Source of the DNA: an uncultured Eubacteriales bacterium
GTDB taxonomy: Bacteria; Acidobacteriota; Aminicenantia; Aminicenantales; Saccharicenantaceae
DNA length: 63,172 nt
Assembly (NCBI GenBank): GCA_964652895.1
Contig: CAZZCH010000006.1
Coordinates: forward strand, 1-63,172
Direction: 5' to 3'
The position numbers were made by a program, and so were the translations under genes. Below are positions 2,128 through 46,848 of this stretch, in pieces. Positions within the stretch are counted from its first letter, which is position 1. Each line of letters begins with the position of its first letter. Below the pieces are notes generated by a model that was not told the DNA's origin, made no database searches, and saw nothing but the letters and a program-made list of their open reading frames with translations.

Positions 2128-4240
2128 GTTCGTCCCCTTTCCTGAGTTCCGCCGGCCCGGACGGGAGCCTGATCGTCACTCGCGTCCCTTTCCCCGGTTC
2201 GCTCTCGAGAAGCACCGTTCCTCCATGCGCTCGGACGACGTGCTCGACCAGGGGGAGTCCGATTCCGCTTCCCTTGACGCTGCTTTGCAGGGCGCTCGCG
2301 GACCGGTAGAATTTTTCGAAGATCTTCTTCTGCTCGACCTTGGCGATACCGATCCCGTGATCTTCGACCTGGAAATTGACGGCGTCCTCCGCGGACCAGA
2401 CCCGCAGGGTGACGCGAGGAATTCCGCCCGAATACTTCACGGCGTTGTCGAGGAGGTTGAGCACCGCCCGGCCGAGAGCGTCCTTGTCCGCGCGGATGAG
2501 CGGCAGGTCGTCCGCGATCTCCGTCTCCAGAGTGAAATCCTTGAAGGCCGCCTGCTGACGGAACCGGCCGGCCACGTCGGCCGCCAGGGCCGCGATGTCC
2601 GTCTCCTCCATCCGGTATTCCTTGACACCCGCTTCGATCTTGGAGAAATCGAGGAGGTTCTCGACGAGCCGGCTCAGCCTCTCGCTTTCCCCCGTGATCG
2701 TTTCATAATACTGCTGCTTCCTCGCATCGTCGCGGACCCGGCCTCTCTGAAGAAGTTCGGCCATGTAGCGGATGGACATCAGCGGCGTCCGGAATTCGTG
2801 GGAAACGGTCGCCGTGAAATCCGATTTCAGCTTGGCCAGCCTGAGCTCCTTGGCCGTGCTTCGGATAGCCAAAAAGCCGCCGAAGAAGAGGGCCGCGATG
2901 ACGGCCGCGAGAGATAGGACGTAGATGGTTCTTCGCAACCGGAACTGTCTCTCCGCGGCGCCGGCACCGCTCCGGTGGACTTCGATCGTCCACGGCGGGA
3001 AGGAATCGGTGAATGCGCCCGTGAAGACGCGCTGGGAATCCCCGTTTTTTGCCGCCGCCTCCGGGGAGACAAGTCCTTGGCCGACGACGACTTTCCCGGA
3101 TTCATCGACGATCACGACCGACCAGCCTTCCTCGAGCTCAGATTTGCCGGAGCTCGGCGGGAAAAGCCCGCCGGCCAGAGCCTGGGGACTGAGGAGCAGG
3201 CCGAGCGTGGTCTTTGTGTCCAGGGGGAAAAAGGAGGCCAAAAGAAGGCCTGAGTCGGTCGACTCGGCGATGCGAAGGAATTTTCCGGAGTCCGCATCCA
3301 TCGCGCGGGCTTCGAGCCGCATGCGTGGGATGAGACGTCCACTGACCTTCTCCAGGATCCCTGTCTTCGCCAGCCGTTCTCCCTCGATCTTTTTCAGGTC
3401 TCGAAGCCGGCCGTCCCAACCCGCCCGGAGAGAGGCATCCAGCTCTCCCACGGTCGTCCGGAATAGATCCTCCGCCAATCTCCTGAAAGATTCAAATTGG
3501 CCCCTGCTCAGAGGCCACCTCGCATCGAGGAGGCCCTGATAGAGCTCGAGATAGGCCCCGGCCGCTTCCGCTCTCTGACCTCTTTGAAGATGGATATTCC
3601 CGATCTGGTAGAGTGCGTTGATCTCGAGCGGGATCCCTTCGGAAGCGATGTCGGGAAGGCCGATCTTGAGCTGCCGCCTGTATGCGGCGATGGCTTTTTC
3701 GGGCTGCCCCGATTTCAAATAGCAGCGGGCCAGCCGGTTCAGGGAAAGTGCAGCCAAGGCCGGGTCGGCGGTCTTGGCCGCCAACTCTCGATAAAGAGTG
3801 GCTGCCTGGGAATAATCGCTCAGACGGAACTCCGTCGCCTCCGCCCATTTCCAGCGTTCATCGTTTTCCAAGGAGCGGGCGATTTCCCTGGATCGCGCCT
3901 TTTCTTCCGGGAGGAGAAAGAGCGGCTTGGCGCCGAGAAAAGCGATTTGGCCTTCGTCATCGACGAAAAAGACCTCGGAGACGAGGGGAATATCGGACAG
4001 GGGTTCTTTCAAGCCCTTTTTTGCGGCTTCGAGAACGCGATTCTCGGCTTCGCTGACGAGCGATCGGGCCCGGCCGTCGATCGTCTCGACGAGCCGTCGC
4101 CGCGCGCCCTCGATCTCCCTCTCTTTGAGCAACTTCTCCCGTTCGGCCTCCCGGACGGCGAAAAAAACAAGGACGACGCTCAAGATCAGGAGCGATATGG
4201 CGAAGAAGATGACCGCCCGTCTTTGCCAATCCAGTTTCAT
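2120..4240 (-). CDS. Sensor histidine kinase with a large TPR-like extracytoplasmic domain (module A)
   Basis: 706 aa. It has an N-terminal TM (AVIFFAISLLILSVVLVFFAV) and roughly 400 aa with TPR-like repeats (YSQAATLYRELA..., KAIAAYRRQL...). A second TM is followed directly by the H-box (FTATVSHEFRTPL) and HATPase_c (GSGIGLPLVEHVVRAHGG). No HAMP or PAS is recognisable. Confidence 0.95.
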   Translation of the reverse strand: MKLDWQRRAVIFFAISLLILSVVLVFFAVREAEREKLLKEREIEGARRRLVETIDGRARSLVSEAENRVLEAAKKGLKEPLSDIPLVSEVFFVDDEGQIAFLGAKPLFLLPEEKARSREIARSLENDERWKWAEATEFRLSDYSQAATLYRELAAKTADPALAALSLNRLARCYLKSGQPEKAIAAYRRQLKIGLPDIASEGIPLEINALYQIGNIHLQRGQRAEAAGAYLELYQGLLDARWPLSRGQFESFRRLAEDLFRTTVGELDASLRAGWDGRLRDLKKIEGERLAKTGILEKVSGRLIPRMRLEARAMDADSGKFLRIAESTDSGLLLASFFPLDTKTTLGLLLSPQALAGGLFPPSSGKSELEEGWSVVIVDESGKVVVGQGLVSPEAAAKNGDSQRVFTGAFTDSFPPWTIEVHRSGAGAAERQFRLRRTIYVLSLAAVIAALFFGGFLAIRSTAKELRLAKLKSDFTATVSHEFRTPLMSIRYMAELLQRGRVRDDARKQQYYETITGESERLSRLVENLLDFSKIEAGVKEYRMEETDIAALAADVAGRFRQQAAFKDFTLETEIADDLPLIRADKDALGRAVLNLLDNAVKYSGGIPRVTLRVWSAEDAVNFQVEDHGIGIAKVEQKKIFEKFYRSASALQSSVKGSGIGLPLVEHVVRAHGGTVLLESEPGKGTRVTIRLPSGPAELRKGDEHG

Positions 4241-43789: not shown

Positions 43790-43975
43790 ATTCGTTCACC
43801 TTTTAAAAAAAGTCCCTCACGCTCGTTCGTGGAGGGCGTCTGTCTTGAGCACAATGAGAAAACCATTATACCTCACCGACATTTTTTTGACGCCGGAGGG
43901 CCGATTTTCTTCCCAAATCCTGCCCACCGGAACTCAAGAAGGGGTCAAACCTAATAGCTGGGTCAAAGATAAGAG

Positions 43976-44027
43976 GGGGTCAAACCTATTTTTTACGCAT
44001 TTCTGCGTAAAAAATAGGTTTGACCCC
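43976..44027. repeat. Perfect hairpin GGGGTCAAACCTATTTTTTACGCA-tttc-TGCGTAAAAAATAGGTTTGACCCC (24-bp stem); extra half-copy GGGGTCAAACC at 43941-43951
   Basis: The arms are exact reverse complements. It lies in the divergent region between the RND operon and secA, 19 nt upstream of the secA-side -35. It shares the GGGGTCAAAC core with 25421-25452. Confidence 0.88.
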
Positions 44028-44045
44028 TTCCGGAACCCGCTCTTA

Positions 44046-44074
44046 TTGACGGACGGACGGGAGCGGCCTAAAAT
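44046..44074 (+). promoter_or_regulatory. Candidate promoter of the leader-ORF/secA transcript (-35 TTGACG, 17 nt, -10 TAAAAT)
   Basis: Hexamers at 44046-44051 and 44069-44074. The first downstream ATG is 44094. Confidence 0.5.
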
Positions 44075-44093
44075 AGATAAAGGGTAAGAGACG

Positions 44094-44279
44094 ATGATAT
44101 CCCGAAGCGCTGTCCCCTTTCTGGCCCTGGCTGTTCTTTTCCTGCCTCTGCCCTTCATCCTCGGTTTTTTCTTTTTCGGCGTCCTCCTCTCGGTCCGGCC
44201 GCGCGGGGAGCCCGACCATGCCTTCGCCGTCATCTCCCGCTTTTCCGGGCCGATCCTCCTCCGAAGCCCGCCTCTTTAA
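44094..44279 (+). CDS. Candidate secretion-monitor-like leader peptide upstream of secA (61 aa)
   Basis: MISRS + 29-residue hydrophobic segment + RPRGEPDHAFAVISRFSGPILLRSPPL*. By hand count, 45/61 codons end in G/C, versus 28/41 for the alternative secA N-terminal extension frame. The stop codon is followed immediately by an anti-SD. Confidence 0.4.
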   Translation: MISRSAVPFLALAVLFLPLPFILGFFFFGVLLSVRPRGEPDHAFAVISRFSGPILLRSPPL

Positions 44280-44334
44280 CCTCCTCTTTTTCCGCAACTC
44301 GGTCCGCGGATCCATTCAAGGCAACGAGAGGAGG
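44280..44334 (+). promoter_or_regulatory. Stem pairing CCTCCTCT (44280-44287) with AGAGGAGG (44327-44334), sequestering the secA Shine-Dalgarno
   Basis: Eight perfect Watson-Crick pairs. The 5' arm begins 1 nt after the leader-ORF stop. The 3' arm is the SD, 6 nt upstream of TTG 44341. Confidence 0.45.
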
Positions 44335-44340
44335 AATGGC

Positions 44341-46848
44341 TTGATCGAAACATCTCATCGCTTTTTTTCCAAAGGGCGTCGCCCGGACGAAGATCCTCGA
44401 CGCGGCGCGGCGGCGGGCTTACAAACCGGGTTCCGCGCAAGGGCACTGACGGCCTTCAACCGGTTCCGCGGAATTCCCGTGGAAACCGACCTGGCGAGGC
44501 TTGCGCGGACCGTCGGAAAGATCCGCGCTATCCATGAAGCGGAAGGGCTCGCCCGGAAAACCGACGAGGAACTCGGACGTTTGGCGGCATCCCTGCGCGG
44601 GCGTCTCAAGGGCGAGGTATCAACCGAGGACCCGGAGATGGCGAAGGTCGAGGCCTTTGCCCTCGTCGACGAGGCCGCCTGGCGGGCGACAGGCCTCGCC
44701 GCCCACGACGTCCAGATGGTCGCCGGCCTGGCCATGGCCGCGGGCAAGGTCGCCGAGCTGCCGACGGGGGAGGGCAAGACCCTGGCCGCCGTTTTTACGG
44801 CGTCGCTCTTCGCCCTCACCGGCCGGACGGTCCATGTTCTGACATTCAACGATTACCTGGCCCGACGCGACGCGGCCTGGATGGGGCCGATCTATCACCT
44901 GCTGGGTCTTTCCGTCGGCGTCGTCCAGGAGGGCATGGACAAACAGGCCAAGAAATGCGCCTACGCCCGCGCCGTCGTTTACGCCACGGCCAAAGAGGCC
45001 GGTTTCGACTACCTCCGTGATCGCCTCGCCTACGAGCCCACGGAGCTCGTCCACCGGCCGTTCGACGTCGCCATCGTCGACGAGGCCGATTCCATCCTCA
45101 TCGATGAAGCCCGCATCCCGCTCGTCATCTCGGGCACTGCCGGCGGGCCCGGCGCCGACGCCGGCCGTCTGGCCGCCGTCGTCCGCGGCCTCGAACGGGG
45201 CAGGGACTATGAGCTCGACGCGGAGAACGCCAACGTCTTCCCCACGGACGACGGGATCCGCAGGATCGAGCGCCTGCTCGGCTGCGGCAACCTCTTTGCC
45301 CCCGAGAACGAGATGTTTCTGGCCGCCGCACACTGCGCCCTGCACGCCGAGACCCTGCTCGAGCGGGACATCGACTACATTGTCCGCGACGGCCGCGTCG
45401 AGATCGTCGACGAGTTCACCGGCCGGGTCATGGATGAGCGCCATTGGCCCGACGGCCTCCAGGCGGCTGTCGAGGCCAAAGAGGGTGTCCGCCGCGGCTC
45501 CGAGGGCCGCATCCTCGGGTCCGTCACGCTCCAAAATTTCTTCCGCCTCTATCCGGCGCTTTGCGGCATGACGGCCACGGCCCGGACGTCTTCCCGGGAG
45601 CTCAAGGAATTCTACGGCCTGGGCGTCGTCGTCGTCCCGCCCCACAGGCCCTGCCTCCGGCGTGATCTTCCCGACGTCGTCTTCACCCACAAGGAGGCCA
45701 AGCTCCGCGCCCTCGTCCGGGAGATCGCGGGCGCTCACGCCACGGAACGCCCCATCCTCGTCGGGACGTCGAGCGTCAGGGAATCGGAGGACCTCGCCAC
45801 GGCGCTCAAAGAAGCGGGCATTGTCTGCGTTACCCTCAATGCCAAGAACGACGAGCTCGAGGCCGCGGTCATCGCCCGGGCCGGCGCCCCCGGCGCCGTG
45901 ACTATCTCGACCAACATGGCCGGCCGCGGCACGGACATCAAGCTCGGCGGACCGCGCGAGGAAGAGCTCGGAAGAGTGGCGGCGCTGGGCGGTCTCTACG
46001 TCATCGGCACCAACCGCCACGAGAGCCTGCGCATCGACCATCAGCTCCGCGGCCGGGCCGGCCGCCAGGGCGACCCCGGCTCGTCCCGGTTTTTCATCAG
46101 CTTGGAGGACGATATCTTCGAACGATATGGGCTCCGCCGTATGCTATTCAAGCGCTACCGGCTTGACCGCCGGTCCGACGCCGTCGACGACGAACTGCTG
46201 CGCAAGGATATTCTCCACGGCCAGCGCGTCATCGAGGGCCGGAATCTCGACATCCGCCGGGCTCTTTGGGATTATTCCACCCTCGTCGAAACGCAGAGAC
46301 GGATCGTCTCCGCCTGGCGGGGCGGTGTTTTCGACCCGACGGCGGAGGCGGACGCGCCGTTCCGTCCGGGTTCTCAGCTCCTCAAGGCCGGATCGGCCCG
46401 CTTCGGACGCGAGGAGTTCGACCGCATGGCCCGCCGGGTCGTGCTCTTTCACATCGACCGCGTCTGGGCGGACCACCTGGCCTGGCTGGCCGATCTGCGG
46501 GAGAGTATCCATCTTGTCAAGCTCGGACGCATGGAACCTCTCACCGAGTTCCAGAAGTCCGCGACCGAAGCGTTCCTCGGCCTGGAGGCGAAGATCGGGC
46601 GCGAAGTGAGGAAAACGTTGAGATCCCTCATCGAGAGGAAAGGCCCCGTCGATCTCGACGCCGAAGGCCTGAAAGGCCCTTCCTCGACCTGGACCTACCT
46701 CGTCAACAACGATCAGTTCGGCTGGGGCGTCGAACTCGTCAAGGGAACGAATATCGGCTTCGCGGCCGGGGCGGCCGCCTTCTATGGCCCGCTATTCCTC
46801 TTCGCCCTCATCGTCAACCGCTTCAAGCGGAAAAAGGCGTCGAATTGA
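44341..46848 (+). CDS. secA: SecA-family preprotein translocase ATPase (atypical N- and C-termini)
   Basis: Walker A (ELPTGEGKTL), DEAD-like box (VDEADSILIDEARIPLVISG), MTATA, TNMAGRGTDIKLGG, RIDHQLRGRAGRQGDPGSS. Start taken as TTG 44341 with AGGAGG 6 nt upstream (835 aa); the ORF track opens at ATG 44218, so the start is uncertain. It ends in a hydrophobic segment plus KRKKASN instead of a Cys/His zinc-binding tail. Confidence 0.88.
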   Translation: MIETSHRFFSKGRRPDEDPRRGAAAGLQTGFRARALTAFNRFRGIPVETDLARLARTVGKIRAIHEAEGLARKTDEELGRLAASLRGRLKGEVSTEDPEMAKVEAFALVDEAAWRATGLAAHDVQMVAGLAMAAGKVAELPTGEGKTLAAVFTASLFALTGRTVHVLTFNDYLARRDAAWMGPIYHLLGLSVGVVQEGMDKQAKKCAYARAVVYATAKEAGFDYLRDRLAYEPTELVHRPFDVAIVDEADSILIDEARIPLVISGTAGGPGADAGRLAAVVRGLERGRDYELDAENANVFPTDDGIRRIERLLGCGNLFAPENEMFLAAAHCALHAETLLERDIDYIVRDGRVEIVDEFTGRVMDERHWPDGLQAAVEAKEGVRRGSEGRILGSVTLQNFFRLYPALCGMTATARTSSRELKEFYGLGVVVVPPHRPCLRRDLPDVVFTHKEAKLRALVREIAGAHATERPILVGTSSVRESEDLATALKEAGIVCVTLNAKNDELEAAVIARAGAPGAVTISTNMAGRGTDIKLGGPREEELGRVAALGGLYVIGTNRHESLRIDHQLRGRAGRQGDPGSSRFFISLEDDIFERYGLRRMLFKRYRLDRRSDAVDDELLRKDILHGQRVIEGRNLDIRRALWDYSTLVETQRRIVSAWRGGVFDPTAEADAPFRPGSQLLKAGSARFGREEFDRMARRVVLFHIDRVWADHLAWLADLRESIHLVKLGRMEPLTEFQKSATEAFLGLEAKIGREVRKTLRSLIERKGPVDLDAEGLKGPSSTWTYLVNNDQFGWGVELVKGTNIGFAAGAAAFYGPLFLFALIVNRFKRKKASN

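Follow-up and report, generated by a model that had tools for sequence, protein, structure and literature searches.

We analyzed a 63,172-nucleotide stretch of DNA, referred to below as the window (contig CAZZCH010000006.1, positions 1 to 63,172), from an uncultured Aminicenantes (Acidobacteriota) bacterium. In this stretch, a short leader open reading frame (ORF) and a gene for a SecA2-type ATPase constitute a two-gene unit with its own promoter, and both genes and their control elements lie on the + strand. The sequence-only reading of this DNA had viewed the leader as a SecM-like secretion monitor acting on secA through an anti-Shine-Dalgarno (anti-SD) sequence next to its stop codon. As judged from the comparative analysis described below, the leader is probably a monitoring peptide of the RAPP type: its ribosome would stall at Pro59/Pro60 and unmask secA2's Shine-Dalgarno (SD) sequence, and membrane insertion would release the stall.

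A conserved leader upstream of a SecA2-type gene

Transcription of the unit is served by a sigma-70-type promoter (44046..44074), composed of a -35 hexamer TTGACG (44046-44051), a 17-nt spacer and a -10 hexamer TAAAAT (44069-44074). This promoter, which had been proposed from the letters alone and was present on re-reading, is the sole sigma-70-like match within 1 kb. In an alignment of 18 species-level relatives, TTGAC and TA.AAT are invariant columns with a 17-18-nt spacer and the flanks diverge. The invariance of the hexamers within diverging surroundings implies that the leader and secA2 form an autonomous unit.

The leader ORF (44094..44279; 61 codons from ATG 44094 and the stop codon TAA at 44277-44279) encodes the product MISRSAVPFLALAVLFLPLPFILGFFFFGVLLSVRPRGEPDHAFAVISRFSGPILLRSPPL. 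It consists, as had been stated earlier, of MISRS, a 29-residue hydrophobic segment and a 27-residue tail, which ends in LLRSPPL. The hydrophobic segment (residues 6-34; 44109..44195) is uncharged, was assigned by hydropathy as a predicted transmembrane (TM) segment, and has prolines in its middle (FLPLPF, 44139-44156). It is directly followed by an RPRGEP motif (residues 35-40; 44196..44213), then by a variable linker (residues 41-53; 44214..44252) and, close to the C-terminus, by the predicted arrest core R57-S58-P59-P60 (44262..44273; codons CGA AGC CCG CCT). No Pfam (E<=0.01) or NCBIfam (E<=0.001) family matched the leader, and these profile searches detected no homology to SecM.

A protein search with the leader yielded 127 clusters, of which 120 were listed; the leader counts that follow are among the matches listed. 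These homologs had E values from 1.7e-29 to 4.6e-9, and 102 of the 120 were exactly 61 residues long. The hydrophobic segment was kept in all of them, with an FLPLPF-like sequence in 118 and an exact RPRGEP in 100, and the R-x-P-P motif was found in every one (RSPP in 110, RGPP in 9 and RAPP in a single cluster). Near-invariant positions of the 61-residue family were thus FLPLPF, RPRGEP and a C-terminal LLR-[S/G]-PP-[R/L], and residues 41-53 varied freely.

We also assessed the genomic occurrence of the leader by searching one genome per GTDB species with the SecA2 protein, which provided 80 loci. A hidden Markov model of the 61-residue family matched directly 5' of secA2 in 18 loci, whose SecA2 proteins were at least 71% identical. 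More distant Aminicenantes loci (SecA2 53-66% identical) had an ORF of 61-106 residues at the equivalent position, with a hydrophobic segment containing LLFPPLLLL, a divergent linker, a C-terminal RSPP, RGPP or RAPP, and no RPRGEP. Altogether, 44 of the 46 GTDB Aminicenantes loci that could be evaluated have the leader 5' of the same gene, with RSPP as the core in 33, RGPP in 10 and RAPP in one. In a 45th Aminicenantes locus (L011), the leader is cut by the contig end, and PPR-stop followed by CCTCCTCC is still visible. One to three residues separate R-[S/G/A]-P-P from the stop codon, or nine in the case of L040. Across the whole family, the variable position of R-x-P-P alternates among Ser, Gly and Ala only, the Arg is encoded by six different codons and the prolines by four, and this C-terminal motif is the only conserved leader element aside from hydrophobicity. 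Among the loci of the GTDB scan, the leader was not found upstream of SecA2 homologs in Planctomycetota, nor in Bacillota except for one locus (L078, see below). In Aminicenantes, the ORF, its RSPP end and the anti-SD/SD pairing, whose conservation the sequence-only reading had named as the way to check its proposal, are kept 5' of the same gene. In one locus (L029, 53-368), the leader is split across two frames by a frameshift or an assembly error.

The 61-codon ORF could also be viewed as spurious, with SecA2 initiating at ATG 44218 and carrying an N-terminal extension that overlaps this ORF out of frame by chance, since no stop codon interrupts the window's secA frame back to that ATG. We give this explanation hardly any credence. 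The in-frame ATG was found in only 2 of 19 close relatives (the window and L003), and in 9 of the 19 a stop codon occurs within 25 codons 5' of the SD-proximal start; on these two grounds ATG 44218, the start that the earlier reading had named as fatal to its proposal, was rejected. In the long ORF from ATG 44218, the SecA domain starts only after about 80 residues (the DEAD domain begins at residue 89). In addition, the ratio of non-synonymous to synonymous changes (pN/pS) over the 19 close loci was 0.48 in the leader frame, whereas the secA-extension frame gave 0.96 and the third frame 1.56. Within the leader, it was 0.42 for the N-terminus and hydrophobic segment, 0.09 for RPRGEP, 0.80 for the linker (the least constrained region) and 0.38 for the C-terminal octapeptide. 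Over the overlap, third-position G+C, which had been counted by hand, was again 15/20 in the leader frame, and the value for the secA-extension frame was corrected from 13/20 to 12/20. Gene callers and databases carry the 835-residue form of the SecA2-type protein (database copy P0001) as well as the 61-residue leader protein. The 61-codon ORF is a conserved gene under selection as a peptide.

The same comparison places the secA2 start at TTG 44341. The leader stop codon begins 64 nt 5' of this TTG, so that 61 nt intervene, and in most relatives the start is an ATG at the matching offset of 64 nt. In every locus, the best pair of SD and start codon was located 41-97 nt (mostly 52-66) past the first base of the leader stop.

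The gene that begins at this TTG (44341..46848) encodes 835 residues with the Pfam SecA DEAD, preprotein-binding, P-loop and wing/scaffold domains, and is the only SecA-family gene in the 63-kb window. It had been called secA; profile scores assign it to a SecA2-type paralog rather than to canonical SecA. It scored 789.4 bits (residues 39-793) against NCBIfam TIGR04221, the accessory Sec translocase SecA2 of Mycobacterium type (cut-off 725), and missed the cut-offs for canonical SecA (718.9 versus 800 bits for TIGR00963 and 716.1 versus 814 for NF009538). Among solved structures, M. tuberculosis SecA2 (4UAQ) is nearest and C. difficile SecA2 comes second, and several close relatives in Aminicenantes and Acidobacteriota metagenome-assembled genomes (MAGs) bear the NCBI name SecA2. 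The protein ends with a hydrophobic tail, NIGFAAGAAAFYGPLFLFALIV (residues 804-825; 46750..46815), and basic residues (RFKRKK); a hydrophobic C-terminal tail was present in 117 of the 120 listed SecA2-type homologs. With this conserved tail and its Lys/Arg residues, the SecA2-type ATPase looks tail-anchored in the membrane, which would be unusual among SecA proteins.

Predicted pairing of the anti-SD with the secA2 SD

The anti-SD CCTCCTCT (44280..44287) abuts the leader stop codon and lies 12-19 nt past the first base of the Pro59 codon. Its exact reverse complement is AGAGGAGG (44327..44334), the strongest SD among the start candidates, which is followed by AATGGC and TTG 44341. The perfect complementarity of these octamers and the 6-nt distance to the TTG, both part of the sequence-only reading, were exact, and the two elements pair in the minimum free energy (MFE) fold of the window with an ensemble probability of 0.97. 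The local fold energy of the window is unexceptional (z -0.47, and -0.85 in a second fold); it is the comparison with relatives, and not the window alone, that shows pairing beyond chance. The post-stop anti-SD is present in most relatives, and so is a GGAGG-type SD at the equivalent place, with weaker GAGG/AGGA-type sequences in the more AT-rich ones.

For this comparison, 42 loci were folded, each from the Arg codon of the core to the start codon. The SD core was paired in the MFE fold of all 42. Counted from the first base of the first Pro codon, its partner was located at -1 to +21 nt and occupied one of two sites, the Pro-Pro codons themselves (-1 to +6) or the stretch right after the stop (+12 to +21), with ensemble probabilities of 0.74-1.00. 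Pairing of the SD with the first 33 nt had a mean probability of 0.95 versus 0.48 after dinucleotide shuffling of the upstream part, and each of the 42 loci exceeded its own shuffles. In an RNAalifold analysis of 23 loci, the anti-SD/SD helix was the only consensus. When this helix was used as a model, 71% of cells were paired, a value reached by 0 of 500 shuffles and compared with 43-51% in slid controls, and two-sided changes occurred in 13 pairs versus 8.4 expected. The bases flanking the helix covary with the stop codon: TGA-CCTCC is found with GGAGG-TC(A) in L018, L028 and L033, and TAA-CCTCC with GGAGG-TT in L024 and L063.

Codon usage at the two prolines provided the most informative view of the pairing. 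In the 15 loci that have no post-stop anti-SD, Pro-Pro is encoded by CCT-CCT in 12, versus 0.34 loci expected, and CCT makes up only 3-26% of the Pro codons in the secA2 genes of these loci. In contrast, only 4 of the 27 loci with a post-stop anti-SD use CCT-CCT. Synonymous sites at Pro-Pro are therefore selected for complementarity to the SD, and it follows from this test that no locus lacks an anti-SD within ~21 nt of the first Pro codon, whether the stop codon follows Pro-Pro by 1, 2, 3 or 9 residues.

Inside the loop closed by the anti-SD/SD helix, a tentative inner hairpin (44291..44310) could be drawn between TCCGC (44291-44295) and GCGGA (44306-44310). Close relatives (L001-L003) had it in their MFE folds, others had analogous TTTCTC/GAGAAA helices, and it looked compensatory by eye; on the alignment only 55.6% of cells were paired, it was absent from the MFE fold of the window, and we do not claim it.

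Proposed stalling at RSPP and the control of secA2

In the mechanism that we consider probable, the leader would be translated first, its N-terminal hydrophobic segment would target the nascent chain to the membrane, and in the resting state AGAGGAGG would be paired with CCTCCTCT. At R57-S58-P59-P60, a RAPP-like core, formation of the Pro59-Pro60 peptide bond would stall; by analogy with ApdA/ApdP and SecM, Pro59 (44268-44270) is predicted to occupy the P site and Pro60 the A site. The bacterial ribosome protects mRNA to about +15 nt, counted from the first base of the codon in the P site. If that codon is Pro59 (44268), the ribosome would thus cover 44280-44283, which is half of the 8-bp helix, and the freed SD would permit initiation at TTG 44341; in the loci where the anti-SD falls on the Pro-Pro codons, the stalled ribosome would sit directly on it. 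Basal coupling would be provided by terminating ribosomes, which would open the stem as well. Insertion of the hydrophobic segment into the membrane would pull on the nascent chain and release the stall, whereas low insertion or export capacity would raise SecA2 synthesis. We infer in this scheme the arrest, the exact stall site, release by a pulling force and the pathway monitored.

The sequence-only reading had placed the pause at or near the stop codon. A stalled ribosome would indeed reach the anti-SD, but the elongation step at Pro59/Pro60 is the more likely site of stalling, as the position of the anti-SD goes with that of the Pro-Pro codons even though the residues that trail them vary in number (1, 2, 3 or 9). 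Termination-arrest upstream ORFs (uORFs) such as uA_NSP-stop or uDF_NAP-stop (Fujiwara 2024) are, like the leader, short and located 5' of sec genes, with a proline near the stop; they differ in that they need the stop codon directly after Pro.

Published data on RSPP favor arrest, and the likeness of this motif to known arrest cores, which the sequence-only reading had pointed out, is documented: RSPP is arrest-competent and RAPP-like (PMC12992588; PMC10987492). RSPP variants of ApdA/ApdP still arrest, and the motif, which is depleted from bacterial proteomes, also emerged from random arrest screens (PMC12992588). RSPP, RGPP and RAPP were all among the query motifs of the Fujiwara 2024 screen (PMC10987492). 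SecM, ApcA, ApdA/ApdP and the 'RQH family' have R-A-G-P, R-A-P-G or R-A-P-P-like cores. Because RSPP is a published motif of this kind, the leader is assigned by its sequence to the recognized class of RAPP-like arrest peptides, and we found no description of it in Acidobacteriota. The RAPP-like groups in Fujiwara 2024 belong to Pseudomonadota, Firmicutes (Bacillota), Bacteroidota, Planctomycetota, Desulfobacterota_F, Aquificota, Armatimonadota, Myxococcota and Verrucomicrobiota, and ApdA/ApcA to Actinobacteria. An Acidobacteriota or Aminicenantes group was not found in the texts and supplements of Fujiwara 2024 and 2025, some tables of which were unreadable, so that its absence is unproven. 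Our literature search also found no paper linking arrest peptides with SecA2 and none describing a leader in Aminicenantes.

Like the candidates sought in the Fujiwara 2024 screen, the leader is a small ORF without a known family directly 5' of a sec gene (44 GTDB loci), has an N-terminal TM segment by hydropathy and a conserved RAPP-like C-terminus, and precedes an SD that is sequestered in silico. It falls short of one property, a spacer of >30 residues from the localization signal to the end of the conserved arrest sequence. This requirement was a screening criterion that ensured exposure of the signal and not a definition of mechanism; it may be the reason why the Aminicenantes leader family, with its spacer of ~19-27 residues, has not been reported before.

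A different view is that the leader is a small membrane protein, which could for instance act as partner or receptor for the tail-anchored SecA2-type ATPase, and that plain translational coupling links the two genes with no regulated arrest or monitoring. The strong purifying selection on the hydrophobic segment and RPRGEP would seem to go beyond the mere need for targeting, a ribosome terminating at the leader stop would cover the anti-SD too, and the distance from the TM segment to Pro-Pro is short for a force sensor. What speaks against this view is that the sole universal element of the leader besides hydrophobicity is a C-terminal R-x-P-P whose Ser, Gly and Ala forms are the arrest-competent variants of a motif that is otherwise depleted from proteomes (PMC12992588). 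The linker is almost free of constraint, and where the number of trailing residues changes, it is the Pro-Pro codons and not the stop that the anti-SD follows. We therefore regard coupling without arrest as unlikely. The constraint on FLPLPF and RPRGEP and the mid-membrane prolines exceed what a simple targeting role explains, and arrest would be compatible with an additional structural role of the leader peptide.

It is still less probable that the peptide arrests in response to some other signal (a ligand, a metal, the state of the membrane or the availability of EF-P, for instance), a proposal made for CruR-type RAPP uORFs. RAPP/RGPP uORFs do occur 5' of many non-Sec genes, their release need not involve the downstream product (PMC12992588), and the conservation of RPRGEP and FLPLPF lacks an explanation. 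Nevertheless, a Sec-family ATPase is encoded downstream in every locus, the leader contains no conserved Cys/His cluster (the Cys in the linker is variable), and the architecture fits monitoring substrates. Such a signal would thus be a very unlikely basis for the control of this gene.

Several observations weigh against arrest-based monitoring. RSPP was only 'partially permissive' in the ApdA/ApdP context (PMC12992588). The distance from the end of the hydrophobic segment to the first Pro is about 19-27 residues (mostly 23-25, and 25 in the window), below the >30 residues applied to monitoring substrates, which implies that part of the hydrophobic segment would still be inside the exit tunnel at the time of stalling. 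Fold energies gained only modestly over shuffles (mean z -1.26), and a duplex-energy test against 300 random windows per locus was weak, with a median rank of 0.07 and 17 of 42 loci at <=0.05. In these pyrimidine-rich, GC-rich genomes, a purine-rich SD easily finds partners, and this test was superseded by the positional, ensemble and synonymous-codon tests. Moreover, Pro-Pro codons are inherently anti-SD-like, so that part of the pairing comes free with coding. One Aminicenantes locus (L015, ~2580-3030), whose SecA2 is 78% identical, has no leader, and its secA2 lies directly after another gene. Finally, the loci are phylogenetically related, and the counts given above therefore exceed the number of independent events.

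That a stalled ribosome opens a stem hiding the SD is established for SecM (PMC10987492). Like the leader, E. coli SecM is a small first ORF on the transcript of a SecA-family gene, with an N-terminal targeting element, a C-terminal R-x-(G/P)-P core and an SD-hiding stem with a 5' arm within reach of the stalled ribosome (PMC10987492). The two have no sequence homology and differ in size (61 versus 170 residues), in the core (RSPP versus RAGP), in the targeting element (an uncleaved-looking hydrophobic anchor versus a signal peptide), in its distance to the stall (~25 versus >100 residues) and in the SecA2-type target of the leader. The leader had been described as an unrelated, much shorter analog of SecM. 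It is much shorter and not homologous, but its proposed mechanism would not be unrelated, as it belongs to the RAPP-like class.

In B. subtilis, MifM controls a paralogous back-up component of the localization machinery. Its arrest sequence, unrelated to that of the leader, lacks RxPP and causes stalling at multiple sites on an acidic stretch, and the target of MifM is an insertase rather than an ATPase. MifM, encoded 5' of yidC2, shares with the leader the arrangement of an N-terminally membrane-anchored monitoring substrate and an SD-sequestering stem (PMC10987492). Closer parallels are the 'RQH family' uORFs found upstream of secA/secDF, as well as ApdA/ApdP (Sakiyama 2021; Fujiwara 2024), which have a RAPP-like C-terminal core and an N-terminal TM segment or signal, are located directly 5' of a Sec gene, and keep the motif while overall similarity between groups is lost. 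Compared to these, the leader has RSPP as the dominant natural core, a spacer that does not reach >30 residues and a SecA2-type target.

Similar logic may exist outside Aminicenantes. In a Bacillota MAG (L078, 2549-2806), an 85-residue hydrophobic uORF ending in RAPPLPLF-stop was found 5' of a related SecA2-like gene. The Ala-Pro-Pro codons of this uORF (TCCTCCATT) and the SD region AATGGAGGA, located ~150 nt downstream, are perfectly complementary over 9 nt. This pairing points to an equivalent arrangement and suggests that arrest peptides may control SecA2-like genes throughout the clade.

The features that would make this candidate notable are its new phylum, its apparently tail-anchored SecA2-type target, its natural RSPP core and its very short anchor-to-arrest distance. 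Confirmation of the arrest would add a further phylum, Acidobacteriota (class Aminicenantia), to those with RAPP-type secretion monitors, and would mean that accessory SecA2-type ATPases, beyond the housekeeping Sec/YidC components, can be under nascent-chain feedback. The leader family would be a natural test case on two counts. Its wild-type core is RSPP, known elsewhere mainly from mutants and random screens. The unusually short distance between anchor and stall bears on how and where a pulling force is sensed: with the proline-kinked segment only ~25 residues from the peptidyl-transferase center, force would be sensed at the tunnel exit. Screens that demand a spacer of >30 residues can miss real candidates. 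Taken as a whole, the proposal of a first feedback monitor for a tail-anchored accessory SecA2-type ATPase, with an RSPP core, force sensing at the tunnel exit and independent recurrence in L078, is tentative, and we rate its chance of holding in all parts as slightly less than even. For Aminicenantes, an uncultivated group, the locus provides a readable regulatory element that comprises a promoter, a leader, a switch and a start codon.

Genomic setting and minor observations

The leader-secA2 pair is flanked by a divergent RND/HlyD efflux operon and an amino-acid permease gene. No terminator-like site was detected between the leader and secA2 or 3' of secA2, and transcription attenuation was ruled out by the lack of such a site between the two genes.

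Most Bacillota homologs of the SecA2 scan (L046, L052, L054, L055, L061, L072 and related loci) have another conserved upstream ORF of 100-127 residues, which contains several hydrophobic segments and an ISNH.(I/V)(I/L)SLDI motif and ends ~100-300 nt before the SecA2 match. In the six named loci, the ORF terminates with KEP and a few residues; other Bacillota loci keep ISNH/SLDI and have variant ends. This ORF could encode a partner membrane protein or another kind of leader.

In the window, a perfect inverted repeat with 23-nt arms and a 4-nt loop is located 20 nt 5' of the -35 hexamer. Its arms are GGGTCAAACCTATTTTTTACGCA (43977-43999) and the reverse complement of this sequence (44004-44026), and a third copy of GGGTCAAACC is present nearby, at 43942. 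An Rfam scan of 43800-44500 returned only sub-threshold microRNA-like matches on this palindrome, and none on the leader or the switch. GGTTTGACCCC is kept at the equivalent place in several relatives (L001, L013, L014 and L047), and a similar palindrome is present in L013. The inverted repeat could be an operator, or a bidirectional terminator common to the divergent efflux operon.

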